From an uncultured Eubacteriales bacterium (lineage in GTDB: Bacteria > Bacillota_I > Bacilli_A > RF39 > UBA660): DNA of 34,299 bases. Location of the stretch: positions 1-34,299 of the forward strand of contig ONSF01000040.1 of NCBI GenBank assembly GCA_900320425.1. The letters run 5' to 3'. A model generated the notes under the pieces. The model did not search any database and was not told where the DNA came from. It was given only the letters and a program-made list of their open reading frames with translations. The translations under genes were made by a program, and so were the position numbers. Positions 6,009 through 29,135 of the stretch are shown here, in pieces (within the stretch, counting starts at the first letter, position 1; each line of letters opens with the position of its first letter).

Positions 6009-6031
6009 TATCTTATCTCCTCCTATTATTA

Positions 6032-6040: not shown

Positions 6041-6042
6041 TA

Positions 6043-6084: not shown

Positions 6085-6087
6085 TTT

Positions 6088-6780: not shown

Positions 6781-6803
6781 AAATTTTACCTCTTTCTTTC
6801 TTT

Positions 6804-7901: not shown

Positions 7902-7913
7902 ACTCCACACTCC

Positions 7914-9518
7914 TTATACAATTGGTTTTACTCCAGGACCAATTGGTAATCCTATTATATACCATCCAATCAAAACAAGCAACCAAGTAATAGAAATTAT
8001 TAAAAAATAAGGCATAATTAATTTTACTGCTTTAAAAATTCCAATTGGATTATCAGAATCACGATTATAAATATTTACATATGCAAGATAAATTACAAAA
8101 AATGCTGATAGGGGAGTAATTCCTTTTGTCATAGAGTCACTTGCTCGAAGAACAAATTGTAAAAATTGTGGTGATATATTAGATTGCATTAAAGGTGGTA
8201 CAATAACTGGAGCCAAAATTTCCCATTTTCCTCCAGCTGTTGTTAAAAATAAGGCAGCAAAAGCTATTAATAGAATAGAAATAATTAAAAGTGGCACTCC
8301 AGAGAAAGTTAAACTATCAATTACATTAGCAACAATTCCCGTTATAATAACTCCAATATTAGTTTTCTTAAAAATAGCTATAAACTGAGAAGCTAAGAAA
8401 ATTAAGATAATAACCCCACCTAAATCTCTTAAATTATCATGACTTTTTTCAAATATATCTTTGTCATTTTTAAATTTTCTAGAACCTATCCCATAAAATA
8501 ATCCAGTTATTATAAATAAAAGCGACATCATATAAGTAAATCCATCTTGAAAATATGAATTATCTCCAAAAATTTGTTTTAGGTAAGTTTTTTCTGACAT
8601 ATCAAGAAGAAGTCCTGATAAAGGAAGTCCTGGAATAACCGAATAAATAAATACAGTTATCATGACTAAAAAAGCAATAAGGCCATATTTAAATCCTCTT
8701 TTTTCTAAATATTCTTGATTTAATTTTTCCTCTTCTGATACAACATCAATAATTTCAACATTTTCACTTTCAATTAGATCTTTTTTTTCTATTTCTTTTT
8801 CTTTAACTTTTCCAAATTGTGGAACAATAATTTTCTCAACAATTATAGTTCCTACTATCGATAATATAATAGTTGTTATAATCATAATATACAAATTAGA
8901 AAGTAAACTAACATGATATGTTTCATCAACAAGACGGGCAGCTGCAGTAGTATAAGGAATTAAACTTACTTCTGATGAACCAACAAATATGGTTGTTCCA
9001 GACCCAAATACAACTCCACAAAAAGCAGCAATAATTCCTGATATTGGATTTCTTCCTTTTCTTTCATAAATACTTGCAGCAATTGGAATTAAAACAACAT
9101 ATCCTATATCATTAATAATAGTTGAAATAGTTGCTATAAAAATAATTAAGAAAGTTACAATTTTATTACTTATTTTAGAAAAAAACTTTTTATTTAAAAA
9201 ATCAAAACATCCACTTGAATCTAATATTGATATTCCTATTGCTATCATTAAAAACATAGACAATGGTGCAAAACTAATAAAATTTCTTGTTGCATTACTA
9301 ATAATATATTTTAATCCATCAAAATTAAACAAATTTTCTACTTGGACAGTATTTTGAACAATAGATAAATCCGTAGAACTTACAGTACTATAAGTAGTTT
9401 GAAAATTTAATGCTGATAAGATTCCACTCAATATAACTGTTATCATTATTAAGATTAAATATATGGATATAGGATGTAGTTTTAATTTCTTTAACCGCAT
9501 TTTCTTTTTTTTATTCAT
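7914..9518 (-). CDS. AbgT-family transporter (p-aminobenzoyl-glutamate / antimetabolite transporter family)
   Basis: Polytopic membrane protein. Remembered E. coli AbgT blocks match: NF..FAPL, ILAP..VP, R..DS....L.P.S.F and the C-terminal W....GLPIGPG. ATG at 9518 follows AGGTGA and overlaps the DUF951 stop by 8 nt. Confidence 0.8.
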   Translation of the reverse strand: MNKKKKMRLKKLKLHPISIYLILIMITVILSGILSALNFQTTYSTVSSTDLSIVQNTVQVENLFNFDGLKYIISNATRNFISFAPLSMFLMIAIGISILDSSGCFDFLNKKFFSKISNKIVTFLIIFIATISTIINDIGYVVLIPIAASIYERKGRNPISGIIAAFCGVVFGSGTTIFVGSSEVSLIPYTTAAARLVDETYHVSLLSNLYIMIITTIILSIVGTIIVEKIIVPQFGKVKEKEIEKKDLIESENVEIIDVVSEEEKLNQEYLEKRGFKYGLIAFLVMITVFIYSVIPGLPLSGLLLDMSEKTYLKQIFGDNSYFQDGFTYMMSLLFIITGLFYGIGSRKFKNDKDIFEKSHDNLRDLGGVIILIFLASQFIAIFKKTNIGVIITGIVANVIDSLTFSGVPLLIISILLIAFAALFLTTAGGKWEILAPVIVPPLMQSNISPQFLQFVLRASDSMTKGITPLSAFFVIYLAYVNIYNRDSDNPIGIFKAVKLIMPYFLIISITWLLVLIGWYIIGLPIGPGVKPIV

Positions 9519-9717
9519 TACTATCACCTACATCAGAAATAATTTTTTTTATTTTTTTATTAAATTCTATTCGAGGTAACATTACTACATGTCCACAATT
9601 TAAACACTTTATTTTAATATCAGCACCCATTCTTACAACTTCCCAAAGATTTCCTCCACAAGGATGTTGTTTTTTCATAGTAAGAGTAGTTCCTATATTA
9701 TATTTTTTATCATTCAT
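9511..9717 (-). CDS. DUF951-family small protein (YyzM-like)
   Basis: 68 aa with the pattern KK.HPCG.N.WEV.R.GADIKIKC..CGH..M..R..F.K. This pattern and its position next to parB are typical of DUF951. Confidence 0.75.
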   Translation of the reverse strand: MNDKKYNIGTTLTMKKQHPCGGNLWEVVRMGADIKIKCLNCGHVVMLPRIEFNKKIKKIISDVGDSNE

Positions 9718-9727
9718 ATTATCACAC

Positions 9728-10612
9728 TCATTCGCTTATATTCAAAGCTTCTATAATTCGATTAAAATCGTTTAAATCTTGAAAATTAATCTCTATTTTA
9801 GTTCCACGAATTCTAACCTTCGTTCCTAATCTATCACAAAGAAGTTCTTGAACATATTTATAGGTTTTATTTTCTTCTGTTTCACGTCTTTCCATTTTAT
9901 TACGTTTTTCAAATGATTTATCTTGTGTTAATTCTTCAATTGCTGCTGTAGTTAATCCTTCATTAATTATTCTATCAGCAATTTCTTCTACTTTACTAGG
10001 ATCTTTTATTTTACTTAATGTTCTTGCATGAGTTGCTGATATTTTTCTAGCAATAACTAAATCTTTAACAGAATCTGGAAGATTCATAAGTCCTACCATA
10101 TTGGTAACATAACTACGACTTTTTCCAATACGTTCAGCAAGTTGTTCATGACTAAGTCCACGGGATTCCATCAATTTTTGATAAGCCATTGCTTCTTCTA
10201 TTGGATTTAAATCTTCTCTTTGTAAATTTTCAAGTAAAGCAATCTCCATCATTTCTTGATCATTAAAATTACGAATAATTGCTGGTATAGTTTCTCTTCC
10301 TGCTAATTTACTAGCTTTAGCTCTTCTTTCTCCTGCAACAATTTCATAGCCTTTAATACTATTTTTAACAATAATAGGTTGAAATACACCATGTTCTTTT
10401 ATACTACTGGCAAGTTCAGAAAGAGCTGTCTCATCAAAAACCTTTCGTGGTTGATAAGGATTACTTCTTAATTCATCAAGTCTTATTTGACGAATTTCTT
10501 CTTTAGGCGTTTCTTCAACAATTTTTTCTTCTAAGGTATCAAAATCTAAAACCTCAGCACCAAATAATTCTTCAAGGCCACGTCCAAGTGCCCTTCTTCT
10601 AGCAGTTTCCAT
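9728..10612 (-). CDS. parB: Chromosome partitioning protein ParB/Spo0J
   Basis: RALGRGLEELF start, NPYQPRK, GERRAKAS arginine patch (CTP-binding fold), LENLQREDLNPIEEA, and an HTH LSHEQLAERIGKSRSYVTN. Its start overlaps the parA stop. Confidence 0.95.
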   Translation of the reverse strand: METARRRALGRGLEELFGAEVLDFDTLEEKIVEETPKEEIRQIRLDELRSNPYQPRKVFDETALSELASSIKEHGVFQPIIVKNSIKGYEIVAGERRAKASKLAGRETIPAIIRNFNDQEMMEIALLENLQREDLNPIEEAMAYQKLMESRGLSHEQLAERIGKSRSYVTNMVGLMNLPDSVKDLVIARKISATHARTLSKIKDPSKVEEIADRIINEGLTTAAIEELTQDKSFEKRNKMERRETEENKTYKYVQELLCDRLGTKVRIRGTKIEINFQDLNDFNRIIEALNISE

Positions 10613-11384
10613 TTCTCATAATCACTTCCTTTGCTAAATTTATATAGGCTTCAGAGCCTTTACTTTTGGGGTCATAAGATACAATTGGTTTTCCATGGCT
10701 TGGAGCTTCTGCTAATCTAATTAATCTAGGAATAATTGTATCATAAACCTTATCTTTAAAATAACTTCGAATTTCTTCTATCACATCAAGTCCTAAATTT
10801 GATTTAGAAAGCATTGTAAGAAGTACTCCTTCTAAATCTAAATTTGGATTTAAATTCTTTTGAGTTAACATGATAGTATTAAGTAATTGAGTAATTCCTT
10901 CTAGTGCAAAAAATTCACATTGAACTGGAATTAAACAAGAATTACTTGCTGCTAAAGCATTCGTTGTAATATTTCCAAGACTTGGAGGACAATCAATAAT
11001 AATATAATTATATTTATCTTGAATGGATTCTATTTTTTCTTTTAATTGATATGCTCTTTTAAAATTAGGATCATTTTTACTTTTTTCAATAAATTCAATA
11101 TCAATTCCAGCAAGTTGAATAGTTGAAGGAATAATATCCAGATTTTTAAAATCAGTTTTTATAACAACTTCTTCTACTTTACATCCTCCACGAAGCAAAT
11201 CATAAACACTATATTTAATATCTCCTTTATTTACACCAACTCCTGTAGTTGCATTTCCTTGAGGATCTAAATCTATTAATAATATCTTCTTTCCTAGTAA
11301 AGCAAGAGAGGCAGATAAGTTAATACTAGTTGTGGTTTTTCCTACACCACCTTTTTGATTTACTAATGAAATAATTTTTCCCAT
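10599..11384 (-). CDS. parA: Chromosome partitioning ATPase ParA/Soj
   Basis: Deviant Walker A NQKGGVGKTTT, DLDPQGNAT, IIIDCPPSLG. ATG at 11384 is preceded by AAAGGTGG. The ORF-track start at 11426 is a 14-aa over-extension without an SD. Confidence 0.95.
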   Translation of the reverse strand: MGKIISLVNQKGGVGKTTTSINLSASLALLGKKILLIDLDPQGNATTGVGVNKGDIKYSVYDLLRGGCKVEEVVIKTDFKNLDIIPSTIQLAGIDIEFIEKSKNDPNFKRAYQLKEKIESIQDKYNYIIIDCPPSLGNITTNALAASNSCLIPVQCEFFALEGITQLLNTIMLTQKNLNPNLDLEGVLLTMLSKSNLGLDVIEEIRSYFKDKVYDTIIPRLIRLAEAPSHGKPIVSYDPKSKGSEAYINLAKEVIMRNGNC

Positions 11385-11484
11385 GATTACCACCTTTTCT
11401 ATACGTTGATATTTATATTTTATCAAAAAAGAATAAAATAGGGAAGATGATTTCTAAAAATTAAGAAAAAAACCGATTTTTTAA

Positions 11485-13770
11485 TCAGTTTTCTTGCTTT
11501 TTGATTTTAATCGTAATTTGATAAACATCGTCAAAATCAATTTCTTCTGTTTCAATATCAATATGGTTTTGTTTAATTCTATCAGTTGTTTTCTTTAATT
11601 CTAATACTGCATCACGTGTTGTATGCATAGTTATTTCAGGTTCTAAAGTTATATATTCATTATTGTTTTTATCTGTTGAGGATTCTTCCATTGGTAAAGT
11701 TACCTCATTATCTCCAATTATTTCAATTTCTGGTACTCCGGAAATTTCTTTAGTATCTTCTAAATCATTATGTTCCTCTAAAGATTGATTGTCATTTGTT
11801 ATTTCTTTATCTACATTACCTTCATTTTCGTTTAATTCAACCGGAACCGGATTTACATTTAATATTTTTTCATAATCATCATCTAATGGATTATCAAACT
11901 TCTCCTGATTTATATTGCTATCATTATCATTAAAATTCATATTATTTTGAATTGGTTGACTAGTATTTGAATATTCAGAAGTTGACATTTGGTTTGGGTT
12001 TGATATCTCTGAATTTTCTAATCCGTTATATGAATATGTATTATTAACATTCTGTTCCACATAATTATTTTCCATTTGATGTGGAACATCTACAATATTA
12101 AGAGGTTGATTAAATAAATTACCTTCTTTGGGATTATAATTATTACTCATTCCATTAAAATCAGGAATTGCACCATTATTATTACCATGAAAATTATTAT
12201 AATTTTCAAAGTTACTCATTGAAAATTCATTACTAGACATTGAATTATAATTATTTATATTATTATTTAAATCATTTTTAAAAGAATAATCATTGTTTGG
12301 CATATTATTCATCATATTATTATTATCATTCGTTGAATTCAATGAGTAATTAAAATCATTAAAATTTCCAAAAGTATTCATATTGTTACCTTGATATTGG
12401 TTATTGTTTTGTGGTTCAAATTGATTAAAAGAATTCATTCCCATATCCATATTTTTATTATTGGAAACATAATTTCTATTCATTGCATCATTAAATGAAT
12501 TCATATCTGAATTAAATCCATTATTACTAGCACTATAGTTATTTCCTATATTATTCATTGATTCAAAATTATTCATCATAGAATTATTGAATCCTTGATT
12601 AAAACTATTTGACTCATCAAATTTATTAAATGCTTCACGACTTCCGTTCGAATCATCACTATCTACTAAAAAATTATTTCCATTATTCTTATTAAAATCA
12701 TCAAAATTTGGTAAAAACTGATTTTCTTTTTGTGGAACATTATCTTCTCTAATATGACTAACAAATAAATTAGAGTTGTTATTATTAATATTATTTGAAA
12801 CATAATTTGGTGTACTTTGTCCAAGTCCTCCATCAAACATAGAACCTAGGGATGAAGGTTGAGAAGAAACTGGTGATGAATTATAATTAAAATTGTCGTT
12901 TACAGCTTGAGTAGAAGCATTCATATTTCCTTCCTCATTAAATGCACTATAATCAAATGAATTATTATTGGTATTTTGAGTATTATTAGGCATATTATTA
13001 AAATTATTTGGAATATTATTAAACATGTTATTTTGAATTCCACTTTGATAATCGTTAAGTCCCATTCCTCCAAAATTTCCTAAATTATTATTCATATTAT
13101 TTTCCTCCCTTTTTATTTCTTTTATTTCTCCTGATGCATCACCAGATTCACTATCTAAATTTTCTTTATATTTTTTTATTTCTGCATCTAGTTCTCGAAC
13201 AGTCAATCTTTCTGTCCTAATTCTATTTAAAAAATCTAATTGATCTTTTTTATTACTAACTGTTAATAAACTTCTTGCATGACGTTCAGATATTTGATTT
13301 TTAATCAGTGCATTTTGTACTTCTTCCGGAAGCGACAAAAGTCTTAATTTATTTGCTATCATTGGTTGACTTCTTCCCATTGTTCTAGCTAAATCCTCTT
13401 GAGTCATATTATCAAGTTCAAGAATTCTTTTATAAGTTCTTGCTTCTTCAATTGCACTTAAGTTTTTTCTTTGTAAATTTTCCAGAAGTGATACTTTAGC
13501 ACTTTCTTTATCATCCATATTTTTTATTATCGCCGGAATCGTTGTAAGACCTGCAATAGCTGATGCTTTACTTCGTCTTTCTCCAGCAATTAGTTCATAT
13601 TTATCTCCAATTTGTCTTACAATAATTGGTTGAATTACACCATGTTCTTTTATACTATCTGCAAGTTCTTCAAGTCCTGTTTCATCAAAAACCTCTCTAG
13701 GTTGAAACCTATTTGGTATAATATCATCAAGTCTTAAATATACTACTTTTTCTTCTTCAGTATCACCCAT
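11485..13770 (-). CDS. noc: Noc-like ParB-family protein carrying a very long Asn-rich low-complexity insertion (761 aa)
   Basis: aa 1-205 are colinear with remembered B. subtilis Noc (IPNRFQPR, HG.IQPI.VR, IAGERR, IPAIIKN..DKE, LENLQR, ANKLRLL.LP.EVQ.AL, ERHAR.L). The C-terminal EEIDFDDVYQITIKIKK resembles the Noc C-terminus. nt 11899-13104 encode an N/S/F/M/G-rich tract. Its position between rsmG and parA is the canonical noc slot. Confidence 0.85.
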   Translation of the reverse strand: MGDTEEEKVVYLRLDDIIPNRFQPREVFDETGLEELADSIKEHGVIQPIIVRQIGDKYELIAGERRSKASAIAGLTTIPAIIKNMDDKESAKVSLLENLQRKNLSAIEEARTYKRILELDNMTQEDLARTMGRSQPMIANKLRLLSLPEEVQNALIKNQISERHARSLLTVSNKKDQLDFLNRIRTERLTVRELDAEIKKYKENLDSESGDASGEIKEIKREENNMNNNLGNFGGMGLNDYQSGIQNNMFNNIPNNFNNMPNNTQNTNNNSFDYSAFNEEGNMNASTQAVNDNFNYNSSPVSSQPSSLGSMFDGGLGQSTPNYVSNNINNNNSNLFVSHIREDNVPQKENQFLPNFDDFNKNNGNNFLVDSDDSNGSREAFNKFDESNSFNQGFNNSMMNNFESMNNIGNNYSASNNGFNSDMNSFNDAMNRNYVSNNKNMDMGMNSFNQFEPQNNNQYQGNNMNTFGNFNDFNYSLNSTNDNNNMMNNMPNNDYSFKNDLNNNINNYNSMSSNEFSMSNFENYNNFHGNNNGAIPDFNGMSNNYNPKEGNLFNQPLNIVDVPHQMENNYVEQNVNNTYSYNGLENSEISNPNQMSTSEYSNTSQPIQNNMNFNDNDSNINQEKFDNPLDDDYEKILNVNPVPVELNENEGNVDKEITNDNQSLEEHNDLEDTKEISGVPEIEIIGDNEVTLPMEESSTDKNNNEYITLEPEITMHTTRDAVLELKKTTDRIKQNHIDIETEEIDFDDVYQITIKIKKQEN

Positions 13771-13811
13771 TTACATCCCTCTTTCTTTTATTTCCCTTTT
13801 AATATATTTAC

Positions 13812-13820
13812 ATTATATCA
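13812..13820 (-). promoter_or_regulatory. Extended -10 promoter element TGATATAAT upstream of the noc-like gene
   Basis: The reverse complement reads TGATATAAT, about 42 nt upstream of the ATG at 13770 and downstream of the rsmG hairpin. Confidence 0.5.
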
Positions 13821-13873
13821 CATTTTTTTTAAATACAATCATTTTTTTCTCTTTTCCTTATAAAAAGTAATTT

Positions 13874-13908
13874 CCCAAAAGAAAAAATGTCAAGTAATTT
13901 AACATTTT
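13874..13908 (-). terminator. Candidate intrinsic terminator after rsmG
   Basis: On the minus strand: AAAATGT-(11 nt)-ACATTTT followed by TTCTTTT. The stem is AT-rich, so it is weak. Confidence 0.4.
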
Positions 13909-13909
13909 G

Positions 13910-14608
13910 TCATTTTTTCTTTATTTCTGAATACCTCCTTGGATATTTTAAATTTGTTGGTTTAATTTTTTCTATTTTTATTAAAGTTCTCTGACTTTTT
14001 TCAATTGGTAATTTAAATTCTTTTATTTCTATAATTTTTCCACCTAATTTTGAAATAACATCTAAAGATTCTTTTATTTCTTCTTCACAAATTCCTTTCA
14101 TAGCAACAAGAAATCCTCCTACTTTAACAGATGAAAAAGATATCTCAGAAAGAATTTTTAAATGTGCTACTGCTCTTGATATTACCAAATCGTATTCTTC
14201 TCGATTAATTTTAGTATATTCTTCACTTCTTGCACATACTACTTCTATGTTGTCTAAATCTAATTCTTTTATTATCTCTTTTAAATAATTAATTCGTTTT
14301 TGTAAAGAATCAAGAAGAGTTATTTCTAAATTGGGAAATACAATTTTTAAAACAATTCCTGGAAATCCCGCTCCTGTACCTACATCCAAAACTTTTAATT
14401 TTTTTGTTAAATCAATAATATTTACTATAGTTAAACTATCATAGAAATGTTTTAAATAAACTTCTTCTTTTATAGTAATTGTCGTTAAATTAATTTTGTG
14501 ATTCCAATCTATAAGTAAATTATAAAATTTATCTAGTTTTTTTATTTGTTCTTCAGTTAAAAAAATATTCAATTTTTCAAGTTCTTCTAAAAATACATCT
14601 TTATTCAT
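13910..14608 (-). CDS. rsmG: 16S rRNA (guanine527-N7)-methyltransferase RsmG (GidB)
   Basis: WN.KINLT, HF.DSL, SAM motif LDVGTGAGFPG..LKI..P, and SRAVA. Its start overlaps the mnmG stop (ATGAATAA). Confidence 0.95.
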   Translation of the reverse strand: MNKDVFLEELEKLNIFLTEEQIKKLDKFYNLLIDWNHKINLTTITIKEEVYLKHFYDSLTIVNIIDLTKKLKVLDVGTGAGFPGIVLKIVFPNLEITLLDSLQKRINYLKEIIKELDLDNIEVVCARSEEYTKINREEYDLVISRAVAHLKILSEISFSSVKVGGFLVAMKGICEEEIKESLDVISKLGGKIIEIKEFKLPIEKSQRTLIKIEKIKPTNLKYPRRYSEIKKK

Positions 14609-16464: not shown

Positions 16465-16902
16465 TCACTTCCTTTTGCTTTTTAATTCAAGGTCTTTTAT
16501 TTTTTTTAAATATTCGAAACATTTATTTTTATATTCATTTAATATTAAATCTACTTTAATCTCTTCTAATTCATCTCTTGTTGTAACTCTTCTTATACTA
16601 TCAATTATTTTTCCTCTTTCATCAATTAAATAATTTAGCATCTTTTTAAGTTCAAATAAATTTAAATTTACAACATCAATTTCATCTACCATCCAATGTT
16701 GATTATTTATAAAGAAAAAAGAAATGTCATCCGAAAATTTATAAAATTTTTCTAAATTTTCATTTTCTCTTAAATCTAATAAAACCTTAATTGTTTCTGG
16801 CATTGGCAATTCTAATTTTTTTATTGTTTCTAATTCTATTCCTTGAATTTGATAAGTTCTTTCCATTTTGCCATTTTTTTCAATTGATACTAATTTTCTC
16901 AT
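16465..16902 (-). CDS. Hypothetical 145-aa soluble protein embedded between mnmE and mnmG
   Basis: The ATG at 16902 lies 4 nt after the mnmE TGA (16907-16909). Its own TGA at 16465-16467 lies 4 nt before the mnmG GTG, and the mnmG SD is inside its 3' end. No TM segment and no recognised motif. Confidence 0.6.
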   Translation of the reverse strand: MRKLVSIEKNGKMERTYQIQGIELETIKKLELPMPETIKVLLDLRENENLEKFYKFSDDISFFFINNQHWMVDEIDVVNLNLFELKKMLNYLIDERGKIIDSIRRVTTRDELEEIKVDLILNEYKNKCFEYLKKIKDLELKSKRK

Positions 16903-16906
16903 TTTA

Positions 16907-18259
16907 TCACTTCCCAACACAAAAATTTTTAAATAAATCATCTAATAATTCTTCATCATATGAATCTCCGGTAATAAATCCAAGTTGTTCCCAAATCTCT
17001 CTTAAATCCATTTCTAACATATCAAGTTCTAAATCATCGTTTATTCCTTCTTCTATATCACTTATAATTTTTAAACATTCTTTAATTTTATTTATCTGTC
17101 TTAAATTTGTAATATAATTAAAATCACTATTATTTATTTTATCTAACTGAAATAAATCTCTAATCTTTTCTTTTAGAATTTTGATTTCTTTATTATCAAG
17201 AGTATTTATTGAAATAACATTAGATAAATTCTTATCTAACTTAATTTTAGTTTCTAAATCATTTTTATTTACAACATAAATCGTTGTTTTATATTTAGTT
17301 TTATCAATTAAGATTTTATCTTCTTCTGTTAACTCTTCATTATTATTTAAAAGTAATAAAACTAAATTTGCTGATTCAATTGTTTCTATACTTTTATTTA
17401 CACCAATTTTTTCTACAATATCATCAGTTTCTCTGATTCCTGCTGTATCTATAATATTTAATTTCACTCCATCAAGATACATTATTCCTTCAACTATATC
17501 ACGAGTTGTTCCTGGAATATCAGTAACAATTGCTTTTTCACTATTAAGTAATTTATTTAGTAAACTACTTTTTCCGACATTTGGACGACCAATAATTGCT
17601 ACTTTAATTCCTTCATGAATTAATTTTGATTGTTCATAATTTTCAACAATTTCTTCTAACTCATTTTTTATTAATGGAATCTTTTCTCTTATATCATTTA
17701 TAGTTACTTCATAAATATCTTGATATTCTGGGTAATCAATATTTACTTCAATATTACTAATTATTTTTATTAACTCATCTCTTAATTTTTTTATTAAAGA
17801 ACTAATATTTCCTTTAATTCCATTTATAGCAACTTTTCTTTCAAGTTCAGTTTCGGAATTAATTAAATCGGATACAGCTTCAGCTTCAACTAAATCAATT
17901 CTTCCATTTAAAAATGCACGTTTTGTAAATTCTCCAGGTTCTGCAAGACGACACCCATTTAAAAGTAAGAGTTCTAATACTTTATTAGTTGTTGCAATAC
18001 CACCATGACAATTAATTTCAACAACATCTTCCATAGTATAAGTTTTAGGACTTTTCATGACACTTACTAATACTTCATCAATAATATTTTCTTTATCTTT
18101 TATATATCCATAATGAATAGTATGACTTTCTACTTTTTCTAAATCATGTCCTTGAAATAATTTATTAACTATAGATATACTATCATTTCCACTAACTCTT
18201 ATAATTGATATTGCACCAACTCCAAGAGAAGTTGCAATACTTGCTATAGTATCGTTCAT
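16907..18259 (-). CDS. mnmE: tRNA modification GTPase MnmE (TrmE/ThdF)
   Basis: DTIASIAT, RVSG, GRPNVGKSSLLN G1 motif, DTAGIR, NK.DL, and the C-terminal FCVGK tetrapeptide. Confidence 0.97.
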   Translation of the reverse strand: MNDTIASIATSLGVGAISIIRVSGNDSISIVNKLFQGHDLEKVESHTIHYGYIKDKENIIDEVLVSVMKSPKTYTMEDVVEINCHGGIATTNKVLELLLLNGCRLAEPGEFTKRAFLNGRIDLVEAEAVSDLINSETELERKVAINGIKGNISSLIKKLRDELIKIISNIEVNIDYPEYQDIYEVTINDIREKIPLIKNELEEIVENYEQSKLIHEGIKVAIIGRPNVGKSSLLNKLLNSEKAIVTDIPGTTRDIVEGIMYLDGVKLNIIDTAGIRETDDIVEKIGVNKSIETIESANLVLLLLNNNEELTEEDKILIDKTKYKTTIYVVNKNDLETKIKLDKNLSNVISINTLDNKEIKILKEKIRDLFQLDKINNSDFNYITNLRQINKIKECLKIISDIEEGINDDLELDMLEMDLREIWEQLGFITGDSYDEELLDDLFKNFCVGK

Positions 18260-18288: not shown

Positions 18289-18297
18289 ATTATATCA
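18289..18297 (-). promoter_or_regulatory. Extended -10 promoter element TGATATAAT for mnmE
   Basis: The reverse complement reads TGATATAAT. It follows the hairpin at 18304-18335 directly, about 30 nt upstream of the mnmE ATG (SD AAGGGGTGA). Confidence 0.55.
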
Positions 18298-18303
18298 CAA
18301 AAT

Positions 18304-18335
18304 AAAAACTATGTCACATTTTTAACATAGTTTTT
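18304..18335 (-). terminator. Intrinsic terminator closing the inserted gene block
   Basis: Perfect 11-bp inverted repeat AAAAACTATGT / ACATAGTTTTT with a 10-nt loop. It starts 1 nt after the stop at 18337-18339 and runs into TTTTTATTTT on the minus strand. Confidence 0.6.
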
Positions 18336-18336
18336 A

Positions 18337-19059
18337 TCATTTTGTTTTAGAATTTATATAAGAAATATCTTTATATAGCTTAATTTGCTGATTTAATAAA
18401 TTTATTTGTTTATCGATATCTTTCCTTATTTCAAAAAATTTTTTCATATCTTTTAATAATTCTAATTCACGATTAAATTCATTTTTGTTATTTTCATTTT
18501 CTTGTTTCATTAAAGCATCAATTAAAATTAAAGTTTTATACTTTATATTTTGGAGAAGTAAATTATTTTGTAAAACACTATTATTTTCTTCACTTTGAAT
18601 AATTTTACCTAATTGATAAGGAATATCTTCATAAAAAACCTTTAATAATTCTAAAATTGAAATATTTTTTTTATATTTAGTTAATTTTAAATAGTTACTA
18701 TCATAAAAATAAAATAACATTGCATACTCACTTAGAGTAAATCCTAAATTTATTAAAGTATGCATAACTTTAGCATCTAATATATTTCCTTCAATTTTTT
18801 TATTCAAATCAAAACTTATATCAAGATAAATATCTAAATAATCAAATCTAAGAAGTTCTATAATACTTTTTAAATGCTTTGCTCCTTTTTTATTAAAATC
18901 ATTTAAATAACCACTATCATATAAAAGAAATAAATCTTCTAATGTATTAGTGTTTTCAAATTTTAAAATATCCATAAAAATATCGTATTCTAAAAACTTA
19001 ATAGGTAAATCTTTATAAATATTAATATCTCTAAACTTACTGTAATCATTTTCTTTCAT
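18337..19059 (-). CDS. Hypothetical 240-aa helical protein with a C-terminal coiled-coil-like tail
   Basis: Good SD (AAAGGAG) before the ATG at 19059. No TM segment. The tail NRELELLKDMKKFFEIRKDIDKQINLLNQQIKLYKD looks heptad-like. No family recognised. Confidence 0.6.
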   Translation of the reverse strand: MKENDYSKFRDINIYKDLPIKFLEYDIFMDILKFENTNTLEDLFLLYDSGYLNDFNKKGAKHLKSIIELLRFDYLDIYLDISFDLNKKIEGNILDAKVMHTLINLGFTLSEYAMLFYFYDSNYLKLTKYKKNISILELLKVFYEDIPYQLGKIIQSEENNSVLQNNLLLQNIKYKTLILIDALMKQENENNKNEFNRELELLKDMKKFFEIRKDIDKQINLLNQQIKLYKDISYINSKTK

Positions 19060-19124
19060 CTTTTTACTCCTTTAATTTATATAATATTGTATGAAATATA
19101 AGATAAAAGAGTTATAATATTTAA

Positions 19125-20231
19125 CTATTTACTTTCAATTATTATTAAAGGAACATACATTTCTTTTTTTGTAAAACCTGCATGATTTGCTTTAAAATGT
19201 GACGGCGTTTCATCATATATTAAAGATTTATTAGTTATTCCAATTAATAAATAATCCCCAATTGCATCTCTTAAATATTTACTATCATACATACCAAATA
19301 TATGATTATCTATAACTTCATCGGTTGTCATTAACAAGAAATCTTTTTCTAAGTATTCTTTATAAATTGATATAAATTCTTCTATATTATTTTTATTTTT
19401 TAATTTCAATCCACATGCTCTTGGTTCAATTGATGTTGTTCTTTCCAACATATTATATAGTTTTGGAATTTCTCTTTTTATATTTATACTTTTATTTGAT
19501 ATTAATCCATGATCTGCAGTTATTAATAATAAAGTATCTTTTAAATTATTTGATAATTCTTTTATTTTATCATTTATAATTTCAACTTCATCTTTTACTA
19601 TTTTAGAATATATTCCATAGTGATGCATTAATTTATCAGGATTTTCTATATATGCATATATAAATTTTTTAGAATCTTCTTTACATAATTTTTTTATTCT
19701 TTCTATAACTTCATCTAAATTTAAACATTTATTATCTTTTGAAAAAGGATAGGCATAGTAAGCCGAATTGGGATGTTTTTCGTTTATCAATTCTATAATA
19801 CTTTTATATTGCATATATTTTTTATCTAAAATTTTTTTCAAACTATCTTTATTACTATCTTTAATTTTATTTAAAAATAAAGATACGGTTTCATTAGTAT
19901 CTTTAAAATACATATCCCATCCAAACCAATGATGCTCCGATGGAGAAAGTCCAGAGAGTAGAGTAGTAGTTGCAGCTGCTGTAGTAGGAGGAAAAACACT
20001 TGATATATTTAATATTTGTTGTTGTCTAAAAAAGCTATTTTTAGGTAATAGCTCTTTTAAATTATAATATCCTAGTCCATCACATACTAACAATACTACA
20101 TTTTTATATTTATTCTTATTTAAAATATTATCTAATTCTTTTAATGTATTATGAACATTCAATACACCAAAATATTTTAAAATAGAATTAGATAAATTTA
20201 CTATATTATTCTTTTCATAATTTACTTCCAT
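19125..20231 (-). CDS. Alkaline-phosphatase-superfamily enzyme (nucleotide pyrophosphatase/phosphodiesterase- or PglZ-like)
   Basis: Complete AP-superfamily metal and nucleophile signature: VLLVCDGLG, FPPTTAAATTTLLSGLSPSEHHWFGW (Thr nucleophile region), YIENPDKLMHHYG, LITADHG, and a late ANHAG. Confidence 0.75.
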   Translation of the reverse strand: MEVNYEKNNIVNLSNSILKYFGVLNVHNTLKELDNILNKNKYKNVVLLVCDGLGYYNLKELLPKNSFFRQQQILNISSVFPPTTAAATTTLLSGLSPSEHHWFGWDMYFKDTNETVSLFLNKIKDSNKDSLKKILDKKYMQYKSIIELINEKHPNSAYYAYPFSKDNKCLNLDEVIERIKKLCKEDSKKFIYAYIENPDKLMHHYGIYSKIVKDEVEIINDKIKELSNNLKDTLLLITADHGLISNKSINIKREIPKLYNMLERTTSIEPRACGLKLKNKNNIEEFISIYKEYLEKDFLLMTTDEVIDNHIFGMYDSKYLRDAIGDYLLIGITNKSLIYDETPSHFKANHAGFTKKEMYVPLIIIESK

Positions 20232-20235
20232 ATTT

Positions 20236-21147
20236 TTAACTCCTTACTAATTTTTTTTGTTTTTCTTTTTCTTTTTTAGGAAAAATTTCATCCAATTTAT
20301 ATACATAAATTTTAAATTTTTCTAATAAATTAATAGTTTCTTCTAAGGGATTTGCAAATATTGCTTTTAATATAGATTCACTTTTGGTAAATAATCCTTC
20401 TAAAAGAAATAAAATATCCTCGGTTATACTTGCTTGTCCAAGTAATCGAATACAAAAAATTACTTTATTTTCTGGAATATCATAATTTTCCCATTTACAG
20501 TAATTCATTAGATTATTAATAAATTTATTTACTGAATAAAAACAGTTTTCTAATATAACTTCATCACTCATGGGAACTGCATGATAATTAAATTCATAAT
20601 TATCTTTTGTTACGTCCCATGTTAAATAGCGATATTCACCTTTTTTAAGCATATCTATACAATAATTTAATCCTTCATGAGCATTTACTAATTCATCTAA
20701 ATTATATCTTATATCCTGAAATCTTTTCAAGGTATCTTTTCCATATACTATCCTATAATTTGTTCCATATTGATATTTATGTGTAACCGGTAAAAAGTCA
20801 TCCATTTGATCTTTAGTGTGTATCATAGCATGTATTAAAACATTCTTTTTATTTTTTGATACTTTATGATTTACTGGTCCAACCAAAGTCGAATATCCAA
20901 CTTCTATATCTTTTGTAGTTAATTTTTTAGATAATTCTTTTAAAAATTTCTCAAAATTAAGAAGTTTTTTGGAATTAACTTCATTACAAATTACTCTAAT
21001 ATCATAATCATTATCCATTCTATCTTGATAATCATCTTTTGCCATTGATCCTACTACAAAAATTGTCTCCATATCCATATCAGATAAAAAATATTTTAAA
21101 AATTCATTATCAATTCTTTTTGTAATACTTTTTAATTCATTCGTCAT
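20236..21147 (-). CDS. Pol-beta-superfamily nucleotidyltransferase with an uncharacterised helical C-terminal domain
   Basis: IFVVGSMAKDDYQDRMDNDYDIRVI matches the GS...DxD minimal NTase signature. The preferred start is ATG 21147, 8 nt after GGAGG. The ORF-track ATG at 21162 lies only 5 nt after the TATAAT box. The stop TAA is 4 nt from the downstream ATG, whose SD lies inside this gene. Confidence 0.65.
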   Translation of the reverse strand: MTNELKSITKRIDNEFLKYFLSDMDMETIFVVGSMAKDDYQDRMDNDYDIRVICNEVNSKKLLNFEKFLKELSKKLTTKDIEVGYSTLVGPVNHKVSKNKKNVLIHAMIHTKDQMDDFLPVTHKYQYGTNYRIVYGKDTLKRFQDIRYNLDELVNAHEGLNYCIDMLKKGEYRYLTWDVTKDNYEFNYHAVPMSDEVILENCFYSVNKFINNLMNYCKWENYDIPENKVIFCIRLLGQASITEDILFLLEGLFTKSESILKAIFANPLEETINLLEKFKIYVYKLDEIFPKKEKEKQKKLVRS

Positions 21148-21183
21148 TTTTTTTGCCTCCATAAAACATTATAGAGACTTTAA

Positions 21184-21210
21184 TTGTCGAATTTTGTCGA
21201 ATTTTGTCAA
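21184..21210 (-). promoter_or_regulatory. Three 10-bp-phased direct repeats T(T/C)GACAAAAT upstream of a TATAAT box; candidate operator or activator site
   Basis: The minus strand reads TTGACAAAAT-TCGACAAAAT-TCGACAATTA, then 11 nt, then TATAAT. No hexamer sits at a canonical 17-nt spacing. This resembles repeat-dependent (activator-type) promoters. Confidence 0.5.
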
Positions 21211-21243
21211 AAGAAAAAGTAATTAAAATTTTGATTAATTACT
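21211..21243 (-). terminator. Candidate intrinsic terminator after the 251-aa membrane-anchored protein gene
   Basis: On the minus strand: AGTAATTAA-(8 nt)-TTAATTACT, a perfect 9-bp stem starting 2 nt after the stop, followed by TTTTCTTTT. Confidence 0.45.
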
Positions 21244-21245
21244 TA

Positions 21246-22001
21246 TTATTCTTCTCTTAAACATACTTTATCATATGTTTCTATCCATTTTTCTAATGTA
21301 GTAATATCATTTGCTTTTTCGATAGTTATTTCTTGACCATTATATTTTATTTCATAAGTTCTATTTATTTCGTCATTTTTGTGTTTTTCGTATTCTTCTT
21401 GATTTTCTTTTAATTCTTTATTTTTTTCATTTTCACAATTTATATCTAAACGTTGAAAGAAATAACAAGATGAGGTTTTATCATAACAATCTCCAAATGA
21501 ACCAGTATCAATAAATACTCTATTGTTTTTTAATCTTATATTACTGTATTGTGCATCTTCTACACCATTATCATTAACTATAATTTCTTTTTCATCTAAA
21601 TTATATACTTTATATTTATCACCTGATTGTCCTGCTGAATAAGGAAAAATTATTAGATTATCTGCAACACTAACTTCGTACTTATTTCTTCCGTCAGATT
21701 TTCCAATTTCATGATCATTTAAATATATTTTATCATCTTTTCTTTTTAATTTTATTTTTTTATCTTCTATTGTTACCTCTTTTTCTTCACCTTCTTCAAG
21801 TTCATATTTTGTTAATTCAGTAAACAAAACTTCATTATTATCTTCTGTTTCCGTTTGTGTTTGTTCTGTTTTTTCATTTGTTGTTTTATTTCCAACATAT
21901 GTCATCTTGAACATAAAATAAAATATAGATACTAAACATATTACTAAAAATAAAATTATTCCAACCATTAATCCCTTATTATTCTTTTTTTCTTCTTCCA
22001 T
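21246..22001 (-). CDS. Hypothetical membrane-anchored (N-in, single TM) extracytoplasmic protein
   Basis: TM anchor LMVGIILFLVICLVSIFYFMF, a T/E/Q-rich linker, and a domain of about 180 aa with five Cys. SD AAAGGTAGGA precedes the ATG. No family recognised. Confidence 0.6.
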   Translation of the reverse strand: MEEEKKNNKGLMVGIILFLVICLVSIFYFMFKMTYVGNKTTNEKTEQTQTETEDNNEVLFTELTKYELEEGEEKEVTIEDKKIKLKRKDDKIYLNDHEIGKSDGRNKYEVSVADNLIIFPYSAGQSGDKYKVYNLDEKEIIVNDNGVEDAQYSNIRLKNNRVFIDTGSFGDCYDKTSSCYFFQRLDINCENEKNKELKENQEEYEKHKNDEINRTYEIKYNGQEITIEKANDITTLEKWIETYDKVCLREE

Positions 22002-22021
22002 ATATCCTACCTTTCACGATT

Positions 22022-22030
22022 ATTATATCA
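22022..22030 (-). promoter_or_regulatory. Extended -10 promoter element TGATATAAT at the head of the inserted block
   Basis: The reverse complement reads TGATATAAT, between the jag terminator and the ATG at 22001. Confidence 0.5.
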
Positions 22031-22031
22031 T

Positions 22032-22067
22032 AAAATAAAAAAAACTACTAATTTTCTTCAGTAGTTT
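22032..22067 (-). terminator. Intrinsic terminator overlapping the jag stop codon
   Basis: On the minus strand: AAACTACT-(10 nt)-AGTAGTTT followed by TTTTTATTTT. The jag TAG lies inside the 3' arm. Confidence 0.55.
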
Positions 22068-22686
22068 CTTCTTTCTTAGGAACTTCTTTTAATTTAATTA
22101 CAACACATCTATTAGGTTCTTCACCAACAGACTCAGTATAAACTTTTTTATTTTGAGATAATGTTTCATGAATAATTCTTCTTTCATAAGAATTCATTGG
22201 ATCAAGTTTGGCTTCAACTCCTGTTTTAGCAACTTCTCTTGCTATTTGTTTCGCCATTTTTTCTAAATTCCATTCACGTTTTTCTTTGTAATCAGATACA
22301 TCTAATACAAATTTATAACTTTCTCCAATATCTTTATAAACACTTTGTTTAATAATTGTTGTTAAAGCATTTAAAGTTTTTGCATTCTTACCAATTAAAA
22401 TCGCATTATTATCTGCATAAATTGTTATATTTAAAGAATCTTCTCTTTTTTTTACTTCCATATTTATAGTAAGACCCATATCTGTTGTTATTCCTTTAAT
22501 TAATTCTTTGATATGTTCTATTACATCATCTTTTTTTATAACTTCAATAACTGACTTTTTATTAAATAACTTTGTTGAACTTTCAATCTCTTTAATATAT
22601 AAATTACTTTCTTGTTCCATTAGATCTACTAATGCTTGATTTTTGGCTTCTTCAAATGTTTTTGCTTGATATGTATACTTCTTCAT
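22048..22686 (-). CDS. jag: RNA-binding protein Jag/KhpB (Jag-N, KH and R3H domains)
   Basis: Conserved position after yidC. The R3H motif block is MNSYERRIIHETL, followed by EPNR.VVI. Confidence 0.9.
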   Translation of the reverse strand: MKKYTYQAKTFEEAKNQALVDLMEQESNLYIKEIESSTKLFNKKSVIEVIKKDDVIEHIKELIKGITTDMGLTINMEVKKREDSLNITIYADNNAILIGKNAKTLNALTTIIKQSVYKDIGESYKFVLDVSDYKEKREWNLEKMAKQIAREVAKTGVEAKLDPMNSYERRIIHETLSQNKKVYTESVGEEPNRCVVIKLKEVPKKEETTEEN

Positions 22687-24291: not shown

Positions 24292-25314
24292 TTACTTCTT
24301 CTTAAAACTTTTTACTTTTTCTTTTACTTGATTTTTCTTTTCTTTTGTAAATCCTAAAACAATCTCAGGATTCTTTTCTTTTAGTTTACTTAAAATTTCT
24401 TCAAGAATATTATCTTTATTTTTATCTAATAATTTAGTATTTGCAACACTATACATCTTATTATTAATATCAACTATTTTTATACACTTATTAATTAACA
24501 AGCCATTGTATCTTTGTTCAAAAGGATATGCCCATAAAATATCAGAATACTTTAAAATAACTATATTACTTTCTAAATCTACAAGATTATCTTTTAATAA
24601 ATAAAAATTCATCTTTTCATACGGAATATTTTTATCTTGATAAATTTCAGCTGCTATTTTTTCTAACTCTTCATGAGAAATACTTTTTAATGTTTTTTTA
24701 TTTTTTACTATTATTGTTGTATATACAGTGATAAGAAGAAATGTAAAAATTCCTGATAACATAGCACCTAAATAATAAAAACTAGAGTCATTTACAGGAG
24801 AAAGTGTATCTAAATATACAAGGCCAACATATTCCTTAAAATTATCAAAAGTTAAATATTCTTCTTCCATTAAATCATTATATGATTCAATAACAATTTT
24901 TTTTATATCACTTGGAATTTTTTTAGTTATACCTAATGTTCTAATAGGATTTTCATTGATAGAATCAACATTTAATTCTTCAAATTTATTATTATTCATA
25001 TAAATAACATATAAATAATTTTCTTTATCCATAGTCAAATAATATTTATTTGATTCTTCTATGCCATTTTTTTCATAAACGGCAAATAAATAAGGTTTTA
25101 TAGAAACATCTATATAACTGTATACATCTTCCGAATTACCTCCATTATTTATATATTCTCGTAATGAAACAGGAGTAGGTAATGGTTTCTTTTCATTTTG
25201 AATTCCAAAATATACTAAAGCAATAGTTAACAATAAAAGAATAATTCCAACAATTAATAAATTGTGATTTCTCTTAATATTTTTTTCAAAAGCTTCTGAA
25301 TTTAAATTTTTCAT
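24292..25314 (-). CDS. Hypothetical two-TM membrane protein located between oriC and rpmH
   Basis: TM1 is LLIVGIILLLLTIALVYFGI, followed by a loop of about 150 aa, TM2 LGAMLSGIFTFLLITVYTTIIV, and a cytoplasmic tail of about 130 aa. SD AAGGAAG precedes the ATG at 25314. No family recognised. Confidence 0.65.
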   Translation of the reverse strand: MKNLNSEAFEKNIKRNHNLLIVGIILLLLTIALVYFGIQNEKKPLPTPVSLREYINNGGNSEDVYSYIDVSIKPYLFAVYEKNGIEESNKYYLTMDKENYLYVIYMNNNKFEELNVDSINENPIRTLGITKKIPSDIKKIVIESYNDLMEEEYLTFDNFKEYVGLVYLDTLSPVNDSSFYYLGAMLSGIFTFLLITVYTTIIVKNKKTLKSISHEELEKIAAEIYQDKNIPYEKMNFYLLKDNLVDLESNIVILKYSDILWAYPFEQRYNGLLINKCIKIVDINNKMYSVANTKLLDKNKDNILEEILSKLKEKNPEIVLGFTKEKKNQVKEKVKSFKKK

Positions 25315-28566: not shown

Positions 28567-28596
28567 TTCGACATATTACAAAAAAATTCGACAAAA
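28567..28596 (+). promoter_or_regulatory. Two TTCGACA repeats spaced 20 bp upstream of comK; same motif as at 21184-21210
   Basis: TTCGACA occurs at 28567-28573 and 28587-28593. The 14-mer AAAATTCGACAAAA (28583-28596) is identical to the minus-strand 14-mer at 21192-21205. Confidence 0.45.
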
Positions 28597-28626
28597 CATT
28601 TTGCTATTTTAGAAAGCAAATTTAAG

Positions 28627-28648
28627 TTTTCCACCACTTTGTGGATAA
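28627..28648. promoter_or_regulatory. Inverted DnaA-box pair immediately upstream of comK
   Basis: TTTTCCACC (28627-28635, one mismatch) and a consensus TGTGGATAA (28640-28648), 35-55 nt before the likely comK start. Confidence 0.6.
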
Positions 28649-28682
28649 ATTTAAATTTAATAATTTAGTAGGGGGTGAAGTT

Positions 28683-29135
28683 GTGAACATAGATTCATAT
28701 GAAATTAATAAGGACACGTGTGCAGTTATTAATATTAATAATGAAGTATCTAAAATTATCGAAAAAAACGATGAATATTTATTACCTAAAAAAAGTTTTG
28801 AGGTAATGGAAGATAGTTGCGCTTATTATGGAAGTAGTTATGAAGGAAGACTTAAAGGAACTAAAATGATGCTAGGTTGTAATTATAAGTTGCCTATTAT
28901 TATTGAAGAATCAAATGATATAATCTTTTTTCCAACCAATGGTACAAGTAATGATAAATGTTCTTGGATATCTCTAAATCATGTTAAAAGTTATGAACCA
29001 TACGAAGGTTTTACAAAAGTTACTTTCTATGAAGGAAAAAGTATTGTTTTAAAAATGACTTGTTCTTCCTTTGAAATGCAATTATTAAGAGCCACAAGAT
29101 TACAAAATTTATTAAAAAAACGTATTGATAAGTAG
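28683..29135 (+). CDS. comK: ComK-family competence transcription factor
   Basis: Colinear with remembered B. subtilis ComK: SYE.N..T.AV, SKIIEK, C..[FY]GSSY.GR..GT, K.PI......N.I.FPT, C.WIS..HVK, T.VTF..GK, SFE.Q..R...L. The preferred start is GTG 28683, 7 nt after GGGGG. The ORF-track start at GTG 28641 has no SD and lies inside a DnaA box. Confidence 0.85.
   Translation: MNIDSYEINKDTCAVININNEVSKIIEKNDEYLLPKKSFEVMEDSCAYYGSSYEGRLKGTKMMLGCNYKLPIIIEESNDIIFFPTNGTSNDKCSWISLNHVKSYEPYEGFTKVTFYEGKSIVLKMTCSSFEMQLLRATRLQNLLKKRIDK

Follow-up and report, generated by a model that had tools for sequence, protein, structure and literature searches.

Contig ONSF01000040.1 (assembly GCA_900320425.1; 34,299 nucleotides, all of which was analyzed and is hereafter called the window) derives from an uncultured gut/rumen lineage of Bacilli with a genome of 24% GC, and it covers an origin-proximal, very AT-rich region in which the GC fraction runs at ~0.20-0.31 along the stretch. 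On its minus strand lie rnpA, yidC, jag, four extra open reading frames (ORFs), mnmE, a 158-amino-acid (aa) ORF, mnmG, rsmG, the gene of a long Noc-like ParB, parA and parB, while the plus strand carries dnaA, dnaN and a comK-like gene; the genes around the four-ORF block fit the canonical origin-proximal string. The initial annotation had singled out these four ORFs, which all lie on the minus strand between jag and mnmE, as additions to the canonical rpmH-to-parB order, and both their presence at the originally reported positions and their status as extra genes were upheld (Table 1). In order of transcription they encode a protein of 251 aa (g1), a nucleotidyltransferase (NTase) of the Pol-beta superfamily, a member of the alkaline phosphatase (AP) superfamily and a protein of 240 aa (g4), and 10 contigs from several sequencing runs, each assembled independently, show the same arrangement. 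The longest ORF of the NTase gene opens at 21162, but the ATG at 21147 is preferred because a GGAGG Shine-Dalgarno sequence lies 9 nt upstream of it and because the resulting MTNEL start is common to all homologues, in agreement with the start first assigned. Likewise, the distance of 4 nt first given between the stop codon of the NTase gene and the start of the AP gene is correct, and an AAGGAG lies within the 3' end of the NTase gene. The analysis described below shows that the conserved core of this block is the NTase-AP pair, which is co-transcribed, translationally coupled and co-inherited.

Table 1. Genes, promoter-like sites and RNA structures in and around the jag/mnmE junction of the window.
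Feature	Position	Strand	Remarks
jag	22048-22686	-	R3H and KH domains
g1	21246-22001	-	251 aa
NTase gene	20236-21147	-	303 aa
AP gene	19125-20231	-	368 aa
g4	18337-19059	-	240 aa
mnmE	16907-18259	-	
comK-like gene	28683..29135	+	likely GTG start after GGGGGTGA Shine-Dalgarno sequence; longest ORF from 28641
Direct repeats upstream of NTase gene	21185..21210	-	TTGACA-AAAT-TCGACA-AAAT-TCGACA, three repeats of 10-bp period
-10 hexamer of NTase gene	21168..21173	-	TATAAT, exactly 11 nt downstream of last TCGACA
Promoter element of comK-like gene	28569..28593	+	TCGACA-N4-ACAAAA-N4-TCGACA, 11 nt, TATTTT
Hairpin and U-run over jag stop codon	22037..22072	-	-13.8 kcal/mol, z -4.8, 0/200 shuffles as stable
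Strong hairpin and U-run over g4 stop	18301..18338	-	-15.5 kcal/mol, z -6.2, 0/200 shuffles as stable
Weak AT-rich hairpin and T-run 3' of g1	21218..21243	-	centroid -6.6 kcal/mol, z -2.2, 5/200 shuffles as stable
Extended -10 TGATATAAT upstream of g1	22022..22030	-	putative promoter without -35, read by eye in AT-rich DNA
Promoter-like site restarting mnmE	18289..18317	-	GTGACA-17-TG-TATAAT, 11/12 matches, TG present
AP-g4 intergenic RNA	19060-19126	-	hairpin, -11.3 kcal/mol, z -3.6
comK-like 5' leader	28611-28660	+	conserved hairpin
158-aa ORF between mnmE and mnmG	16465-16941	-	overlaps mnmE 3' end by 35 nt
ParB homologue at Noc position	11485-13770	-	761 aa
340-aa membrane protein	24292-25314	-	between dnaA and rpmH
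MucBP/SdrD-B surface protein	1728-6041	-	1437 aa, sortase adjacent
Other cargo at the junction, related loci	L012 2394-3842; L018 5211-6662; L019 9171-13072; L050 6694-7461; L053; L073		

Conservation of the NTase-AP pair

Relatives were collected by two scans, one of species-representative genomes with an NTase profile, which yielded 26 loci and is a sample biased to NTase carriers, and the other of metagenome contigs, anchored on jag. In about 21 of the 24 genomes carrying an NTase at ≥44% identity, the AP gene adjoins that of the NTase, with gaps of 0-33 nt and once of 93 nt. The gene order is NTase-AP in the Bacilli clade to which the window belongs and AP-NTase in a second Bacillota clade, where the NTases are 44-52% identical and hardly any two genomes have the same neighborhood (tsf/murA; an M26 peptidase with SbcCD; ribosomal protein L9; a type IV secretion system (T4SS) coupling protein with a Zeta-like kinase; a transposase). 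A third gene conserved alongside the pair was sought in this second clade, and AP and NTase alone were found to be shared. In a rough neighbor-joining tree, the NTase-paired APs of both orders form one clade; at its base stand P0154, an unpaired AP, and P0155, of unchecked pairing, and outside it are APs fused or adjacent to haloacid dehalogenase (HAD) phosphatases, APs fused to GNAT acetyltransferases and other solitary APs. The conservation of both gene orders, together with the grouping of the paired APs in one clade, points to coupling rather than coincidence. Thus, the functional pairing first proposed from the 4-nt spacing is borne out by recurrence at unrelated loci, though not in defense islands.

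Some of the second-clade neighbors deserve mention in their own right. In L023 (640-5930), a TraG/VirD4 coupling protein is encoded upstream of AP-NTase, and in two loci of this clade, L023 and L025 (7845-8762), the NTase is followed by a Zeta-toxin-like P-loop kinase whose gene overlaps the NTase 3' end. A Transposase_31 lies nearby in L084 (3724-4470) and L085.

Beyond these clades, NTase homologues at 30-40% identity occur without AP. Several of these (L034, Blautia glucerasea NZ_JAJBMO010000007 3000-14170; L007; L006; L035) sit in conserved clusters that variously encode a kinase-like protein of 1296 aa, NifD/K-like, NifH-like and Glycos_transf_3-like proteins, a Peptidase_U32, PabA, a PabB-chorismate mutase fusion or several radical-SAM enzymes, and that look like uncharacterized biosynthetic clusters. 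Among 30 long remote homologues of the NTase, 19 are fused to a C-terminal His_Phos_1 domain (e.g., P0305, P0320, P0326, P0337), so that partnership of this NTase lineage with a phosphoesterase appears to be recurrent. Single remote homologues are fused to DHQ synthase, to an alpha/beta-hydrolase and, weakly, to CYTH, and the only cluster name found among the remote homologues was 'PhoE', which refers to the fused phosphatase.

The NTase

The NTase matches a single Pfam model, Polbeta (23.2 bits, 7.9e-5), at a score below the curated cut-off of 26.9, and its GS...DxD signature (G33, S34, D47, D49) is invariant or nearly so among homologues, which agrees with the Pol-beta signature originally reported. 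An AlphaFold2 (AF2) model (pLDDT 92) was compared with known structures by Foldseek. The best match was AAD(9) (E 7e-6, TM-score (TM) 0.49-0.58), followed by AadA, ANT(6), KNTase and LinB; over the aminoglycoside nucleotidyltransferases (ANTs) as a group, E ranged from 7e-6 to 1e-3 and TM, normalized to the target, from 0.49 to 0.60. Tam41 ranked 28th and HalB 42nd, CD-NTases appeared at ranks 21 (probability 0.72, TM 0.27) and 43 (probability 0.28), and MNT antitoxins were among the fold matches of the N-terminal domain. No CCA-adding enzyme, poly(A) polymerase or Pol X was present in the top 50 Foldseek matches, nothing below E 1e-3 was obtained against viral structures, and PDB sequence searches with the single sequence and with a profile returned nothing. 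Together with the Pfam results for both proteins, these comparisons support the domain assignments first made for the NTase and, as described below, for the AP. The family is small (138 clusters at 90% identity among 5.8 billion proteins; 171 representatives at 50% identity among 1.84 billion proteins), its members are all labeled 'hypothetical', and no Pfam model covers the full length of any of them; 4 of 23 touch the ANT(6) model Adenyl_transf (PF04439), with E-values up to 1.5e-4. On the basis of the model, the NTase is predicted to be a member of a new, small and unannotated ANT-like Pol-beta family with a two-domain architecture.

This likeness raises the question of whether the enzyme modifies xenobiotics or antibiotics, in the manner of an ANT- or Lnu-like resistance enzyme, with the AP being a general nucleotide pyrophosphatase that merely resides in the same operon. 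Besides the ANT-like fold and the weak ANT(6) matches of some family members, such a role would suit the Zeta-like kinase (L023, L025), the T4SS coupling protein (L023) and the transposase (L084, L085) found near some copies, as well as the sources, which are all animal gut or rumen samples (the 26 NTase loci all come from metagenome-assembled genomes of such origin, except for one Blautia isolate). We nevertheless consider it improbable: the pair is kept in two gene orders with the paired APs forming one clade; it is chromosomal and occupies a stable site next to the origin; tblastn with NTase and AP against 72,556 plasmids, and likewise against phages, gave no match; identity to known ANTs is only 10-13%; and a diesterase partner would reverse adenylylation.

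The AP-superfamily partner

The AP protein matches the Pfam family Phosphodiest (PF01663) over residues 45-298 with 72.5 bits (cut-off 23, E 6.3e-20), with weaker overlapping matches to Metalloenzyme and PglZ (the latter at 31.4 bits, cut-off 25). The catalytic blocks first listed for it are genuine: residues D51, T83/T84, H100, D199, H203, D240, H241 and H350 are invariant in 28 homologues, which comprises the three Asp and three His ligands of the two-metal site and the Thr-Thr nucleophile motif. The N-terminal helix is also conserved (S16, I17, L18, K19). Foldseek matches of its AF2 model (pLDDT 95) were to ENPP5, ENPP3, ENPP1, ENPP4, ENPP6, autotaxin and snake-venom phosphodiesterase (E down to 2e-17, TM 0.63-0.67) and included ENPP1 with oligonucleotide or cyclic GMP-AMP (cGAMP) ligands, and a PDB sequence search gave marginal ENPP matches only. 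The protein has no signal peptide or membrane segment and is therefore taken to be a cytosolic enzyme of the nucleotide pyrophosphatase/phosphodiesterase (NPP) type. Judged by its sequence and modeled fold, the AP is predicted to be a cytosolic ENPP/NPP-type phosphodiesterase or pyrophosphatase with intact catalytic residues.

In the wider AP family, a Cof-type HAD phosphatase is frequently part of the same protein or encoded just after it, directly downstream of LtaS and a sortase (L009-L011, L038, L039; P0174, P0181; P0171-P0198), and further members are fused to a GNAT acetyltransferase (P0173, P0193).

If the AP acted as a phosphomutase or phosphatase instead, it could supply X-1-phosphate or X-OH for conversion by the NTase into NDP-X or NMP-X, i.e., the pair could activate precursors for decorating the envelope or surface, possibly in connection with the neighboring surface proteins. 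Both the AP superfamily and the His_Phos_1 domains of the 19 fusions include mutases and phosphatases, iPGM, DeoB and dPGM being mutases of these superfamilies, and related APs are linked to Cof-type HAD proteins near LtaS. Additionally, Tam41, which makes CDP-diacylglycerol, is among the NTase fold matches, distant NTase homologues lie within biosynthetic-looking clusters, and membrane-anchored secreted proteins are encoded at the same junction (g1; proteins of 410-480 aa in L012, L018 and L019). Against this stand the match of the AP model to ENPP diesterases, with no iPGM or DeoB in the top 50 Foldseek matches, and the negligible NCBIfam mutase scores (15 bits, with cut-offs >250); moreover, no glycosyl- or phospho-transferase is conserved beside the pair, and g1-like proteins are not conserved with it. 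A role in precursor activation therefore appears rather unlikely.

A promoter element common to the NTase and comK-like genes

Upstream of the NTase gene, three direct repeats with a 10-bp period precede a -10 hexamer. In almost every relative, two or three copies of TCGACA occur there at the same period, the last one 11 nt before a TATAAT-like -10, and no -35 is found at canonical spacing in these NTase promoters. The same element, with the consensus TCGACA-N4-(degenerate hexamer)-N4-TCGACA-N11-TAT(A/T)(A/T)T, precedes the comK-like gene in every relative whose locus reaches that region, distant ones included, and the 11-nt spacing between repeat and -10 never varies, at NTase and comK promoters alike. 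A search of 812 kb of fetched loci for TCGACA-N4-TCGACA or TCGACA-N14-TCGACA gave 26 occurrences, every one of them at the promoter of an NTase or comK gene, compared with none in 20 block shuffles; the element was seen in the window and in L001, L005, L012-L022, L031, L032, L049, L079 and L050-L081. The orthologues of the comK-like gene in L001 and L005 carry the ComK domain (PF06338). A repeat geometry of this kind is typical of winged-helix activators that bind direct repeats, such as PhoB, OmpR and SARP. This architecture suggests that the NTase and comK promoters are of the activator type and may answer to one regulator, and ComK itself could be the protein that binds the TCGACA repeats. 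Because the promoter element is common to both genes, the NTase-AP module is considered to be co-regulated with comK, and we infer that it is activated along with the competence regulator; to our knowledge, competence and the regulons of this gut Bacilli lineage are unstudied.

The 5' leader of the comK-like gene contains, in addition, a conserved hairpin (TTTTCCAC-loop-GTGGATAAA) flanked by AAATTTAA, which recurs in L016 (~240-285, minus strand) and L031 (~95-135, minus strand) and has no Rfam match.

The comK connection also invites the idea that the pair processes nucleic-acid ends during competence, with the AP attacking oligonucleotides or the ends of DNA or RNA as a phosphodiesterase or exonuclease and the NTase tailing or capping the 3'-OH. 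The Pol-beta superfamily does take in terminal transferases and CCA- or poly(A)-adding enzymes, and the genes around the module (rnpA, jag/KhpB, mnmE, mnmG) are RNA-related. Snake-venom phosphodiesterase and ligand-bound ENPP1 are likewise among the AP fold matches, and PorX, a PglZ-type protein, hydrolyzes oligonucleotides (PMC9757075). These points are countered by the best structural matches of the NTase, which are small-molecule ANTs, by the lack of any detected nucleic-acid-binding domain in Pfam searches with NTase and AP, by the second clade, where the site beside tRNA/RNA genes is not kept, and by the fact that the ComK link consists of one shared cis-element. We regard end processing as quite unlikely.

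Nucleotidylylation and its removal as a putative function

The make-and-break, or nucleotidylylation-and-removal, idea put forward in the initial annotation remains the most economical, albeit putative, reading of the pair. Under this proposal, an activator would act at the -35-less promoter through the TCGACA repeats and turn on NTase-AP together with the comK-like gene. The NTase would then use a nucleoside triphosphate (NTP) to attach a nucleoside monophosphate (NMP) to a small molecule at a hydroxyl (phosphates, side chains of proteins and 3' ends of nucleic acids being less likely acceptors), and the NPP-type AP would hydrolyze a nucleotide phosphodiester or pyrophosphate bond in the same compound. 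NTase and AP would accordingly act either as a nucleotidylylation/de-nucleotidylylation pair or in two-step processing. The interpretation that we tentatively favor, while placing it somewhat short of an even chance, is a module of two enzymes, co-regulated with comK, by which a nucleotidyl group is added and hydrolyzed.

Several observations weigh against it. Canonical NPP cleavage of X-O-AMP regenerates X, and the two activities would amount to a futile cycle unless regulated. In nucleotide-specific NPPs the nucleophile is followed by Phe and Asn (motif TFPNH); in a manual alignment to this motif, the AP reads T84-A-A-A-T, and its nucleotide specificity is not assured because Ala replaces both residues. 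The wider AP family greatly exceeds that of the NTase in size, at more than 440 clusters, and works elsewhere without an NTase, and conversely L005 and L032 retain the NTase with no adjacent AP. The His_Phos_1 domains fused to remote NTase homologues are monoesterases or mutases and not diesterases, and they fit the logic of a phosphatase or mutase acting with an NTase at least as well. No TCGACA element precedes the AP-NTase pairs in the second clade, and the tree that unites the paired APs carries no support values. Finally, a markedly acidic NTase, as would befit the ANTs, which are acidic enzymes, was considered and dropped in view of its pI of 6.4 (family median 5.5).

A more specific and farther-reaching version of the same proposal would have the pair represent an unrecognized, ComK-co-regulated nucleotidyl writer/eraser (or tailing-trimming) module, composed of a new ANT-like NTase and a dedicated cytosolic NPP clade, whose substrate could be some metabolite, protein or incoming nucleic acid that is peculiar to competent cells of genome-reduced gut Bacilli, and which would be one case of a wider, as yet undescribed NTase-phosphoesterase partnership; in this full form it is unlikely. 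The recurrent association of such NTases with phosphoesterases, as an NPP-type neighbor or as a His_Phos_1 fusion, points to an uncharacterized two-step nucleotide chemistry, and the rigidly spaced promoter element provides a concrete and testable link to a comK-like regulator in uncultured, genome-reduced Bacilli of the animal gut. If found, the substrate could reveal a new modification of a metabolite or macromolecule; otherwise, the two proteins would be an ordinary lineage-specific pair of accessory enzymes.

Boundaries and history of the jag/mnmE junction

The block had been described as insulated by hairpins on both flanks, and these are far more stable than shuffled sequences (z -4.8 and -6.2; Table 1). 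The hairpin at the jag stop codon is likely the intrinsic terminator of the rnpA-yidC-jag unit, and that at the g4 stop is likely the terminator of the block. The hairpin attributed to g1 itself is present but marginal (z -2.2). A generic terminator scan of the window found none, because it requires at least three G-C pairs, which are rarely available in a genome of 24% GC. A promoter scan returned 65 sites in the window, compared with 69 expected, and is therefore uninformative overall in such AT-rich DNA; the promoter-like restart ahead of mnmE that had been noticed initially is among the sites that it picked out. The AP-g4 intergenic RNA forms a hairpin in which the Shine-Dalgarno sequence of g4, AAAGGAG, is base-paired with a CUCUUUU lying upstream. 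Scanning the window for Rfam families and tRNAs gave no matches.

Two further suggestions, that the block is self-contained and that it is an insertion, were addressed by comparison with close relatives. The four ORFs are not universal: jag directly adjoins mnmE in L046 and L048, whose jag is 84% and 79% identical, respectively, and also in several relatives with 70-74% identity. The NTase gene lies between jag and mnmE in ~15 of the 26 loci (NTase 61-74% identical), L079 has NTase-AP without g1, and L049 has g1 with a truncated remnant of the NTase. g1 has homologues in only a subset of relatives (35-41% identity in L001, L005 and L032; 59-65% in L042-44), and g4 was found only in the source species and in L005, where its homologue is 40% identical. 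Hence, the description as a self-contained unit does not hold, since among relatives each of g1, NTase-AP and g4 is present or absent irrespective of the others. The idea of an insertion stands insofar as the junction is variable, with jag and mnmE adjacent in close relatives; a recent insertion is contradicted by the presence of the NTase at the same site in ~15 species-level genomes, with identities quoted overall as 61-83%.

The proteins that flank the pair differ from it in character. g1 is acidic (pI 4.8), with a single hydrophobic segment at its N terminus and four Cys in its C-terminal, extracytoplasmic part, which is consistent with its original description as a membrane-anchored, Cys-containing protein, and it evolves fast; g4 has no Cys. 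Neither protein has a family match in Pfam, PADLOC, NCBIfam or PHROGs, and NCBIfam offered no usable match for any of the four proteins. Kinship of g4 with the ~255-aa junction proteins of more distant relatives was considered and rejected (hhalign probability 0.2). Other cargo found at the same junction in relatives includes the membrane-anchored secreted proteins of 410-480 aa, which are rich in Cys and Tyr/Asn (L012, L018, L019), a 444-aa ATPase that is AAA_14/DUF4143-like by eye, and unrelated helical proteins of ~255-268 aa. The signs of a mobile island that were sought in the block (integrase or transposase, repeats, composition, presence in plasmids or phages) were not found: there is no integrase within it and no repeats bracket it, its GC fraction of 0.19-0.23 shows no clear contrast to the ~0.21-0.27 of its flanks, and a scan of IMG/VR with the NTase profile yielded no relative. 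The junction is a long-standing variable spot at which the module is chromosomal, old, vertically inherited and dispensable, and g1 and g4 are separate, fast-evolving passengers of the junction that lie outside the module.

Other genes of the origin region

Further lineage-specific features surround the junction. The 158-aa ORF that follows mnmE is kept in relatives at 23-68% identity, and its sole family match is a marginal one to the PADLOC model PtuA (E 1.7e-4, 18 bits). The 340-aa membrane protein encoded between dnaA and rpmH occurs lineage-wide at 39-67% identity, its L005 orthologue has a DUF6709 domain, and it constitutes another lineage-specific gene within the canonical origin string. 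The ParB homologue at the Noc position is unusually long, with ParB_N and HTH_ParB confined to its first 200 residues, and the 1437-aa MucBP/SdrD-B surface protein is encoded next to a sortase (Table 1).

Comparison with known systems

The initial annotation could not place the pair in CBASS or BREX, and the partner and effector genes of these systems are indeed missing. The AP shares its superfamily fold with the PglZ enzymes, among them BREX PglZ and PorX, but its Phosphodiest match is much stronger than that to PglZ, it has no receiver domain and no match to a PADLOC PglZ model, and none of PglX, BrxC and BrxL is encoded in the window or in at least 40 related loci. PorX is a PglZ-type phosphodiesterase that hydrolyzes oligonucleotides (PMC9757075). 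With CBASS CD-NTases and the HalB of Hailong, the NTase has in common the Pol-beta core and a gene position beside one possibly acting on nucleotides; it has no SMODS Pfam match and no CBASS match in PADLOC, and no effector or Cap genes accompany it.

An anti-phage defense or second-messenger module, in which the NTase would make a signal and the AP would degrade it or act as effector, was one of the roles first suggested. In its favor could be cited the score of the AP above the Pfam PglZ cut-off, the variability of the junction, the HalB and CD-NTase matches far down the NTase fold list, and the degradation of cyclic or linear oligonucleotides by ENPP1 and PorX (for PorX, PMC9757075). This suggestion was not sustained and is now highly improbable: PADLOC has no match for the AP and only marginal MNT-type matches (PDC-S09, E 0.002-0.007) for the NTase; nothing turned up in PHROGs, plasmids, phages or IMG/VR; genes for effectors, BREX components or Cap proteins are lacking; the fold is ANT-like, with weak CD-NTase matches (TM ~0.25); and the neighbors are housekeeping genes and not defense islands. 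An MNT-HEPN toxin-antitoxin system was also rejected: a minimal MNT NTase has ~100-140 aa and lies next to a HEPN toxin gene, whereas the NTase has 303 aa with an integrated helical domain and its neighbor is an AP and not a HEPN protein.

Under the nucleotidylylation-and-removal reading, the nearest parallels are writer/eraser pairs such as GlnE AT/AR, SidM/SidD and MntA-HepT, which the module resembles in logic only, as an NTase beside a putative remover; the partners have no homology to the AP, and there is no HEPN gene here. Known nucleotidyl erasers are PP2C-like or phosphorolytic and do not have the AP fold. With the NPP/ENPP family, the AP shares the catalytic-domain fold, all six metal-binding residues and the nucleophilic Thr, differing in being cytosolic and only ~15% identical. 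Similar to the ANTs (AAD(9)/ANT(9), AadA/ANT(3'')(9), ANT(6), ANT(4')/KNTase, LinB), the NTase combines an N-terminal Pol-beta core bearing GS...DxD with a C-terminal helical domain. It is set apart from them by its identity of only 10-13%, by the absence of matches of the window NTase to the ANT Pfam models (PF04439, AadA_C, KNTase_C) and by an extra beta-hairpin pair in its model (residues 171-192). Unlike them, it is also chromosomal, stably placed and typically paired with a phosphodiesterase, and we know of no ANT that is so paired. The superfamilies of both enzymes are well known; the literature searched contains no description of their pairing, and the NTase-AP combination is in that respect new.

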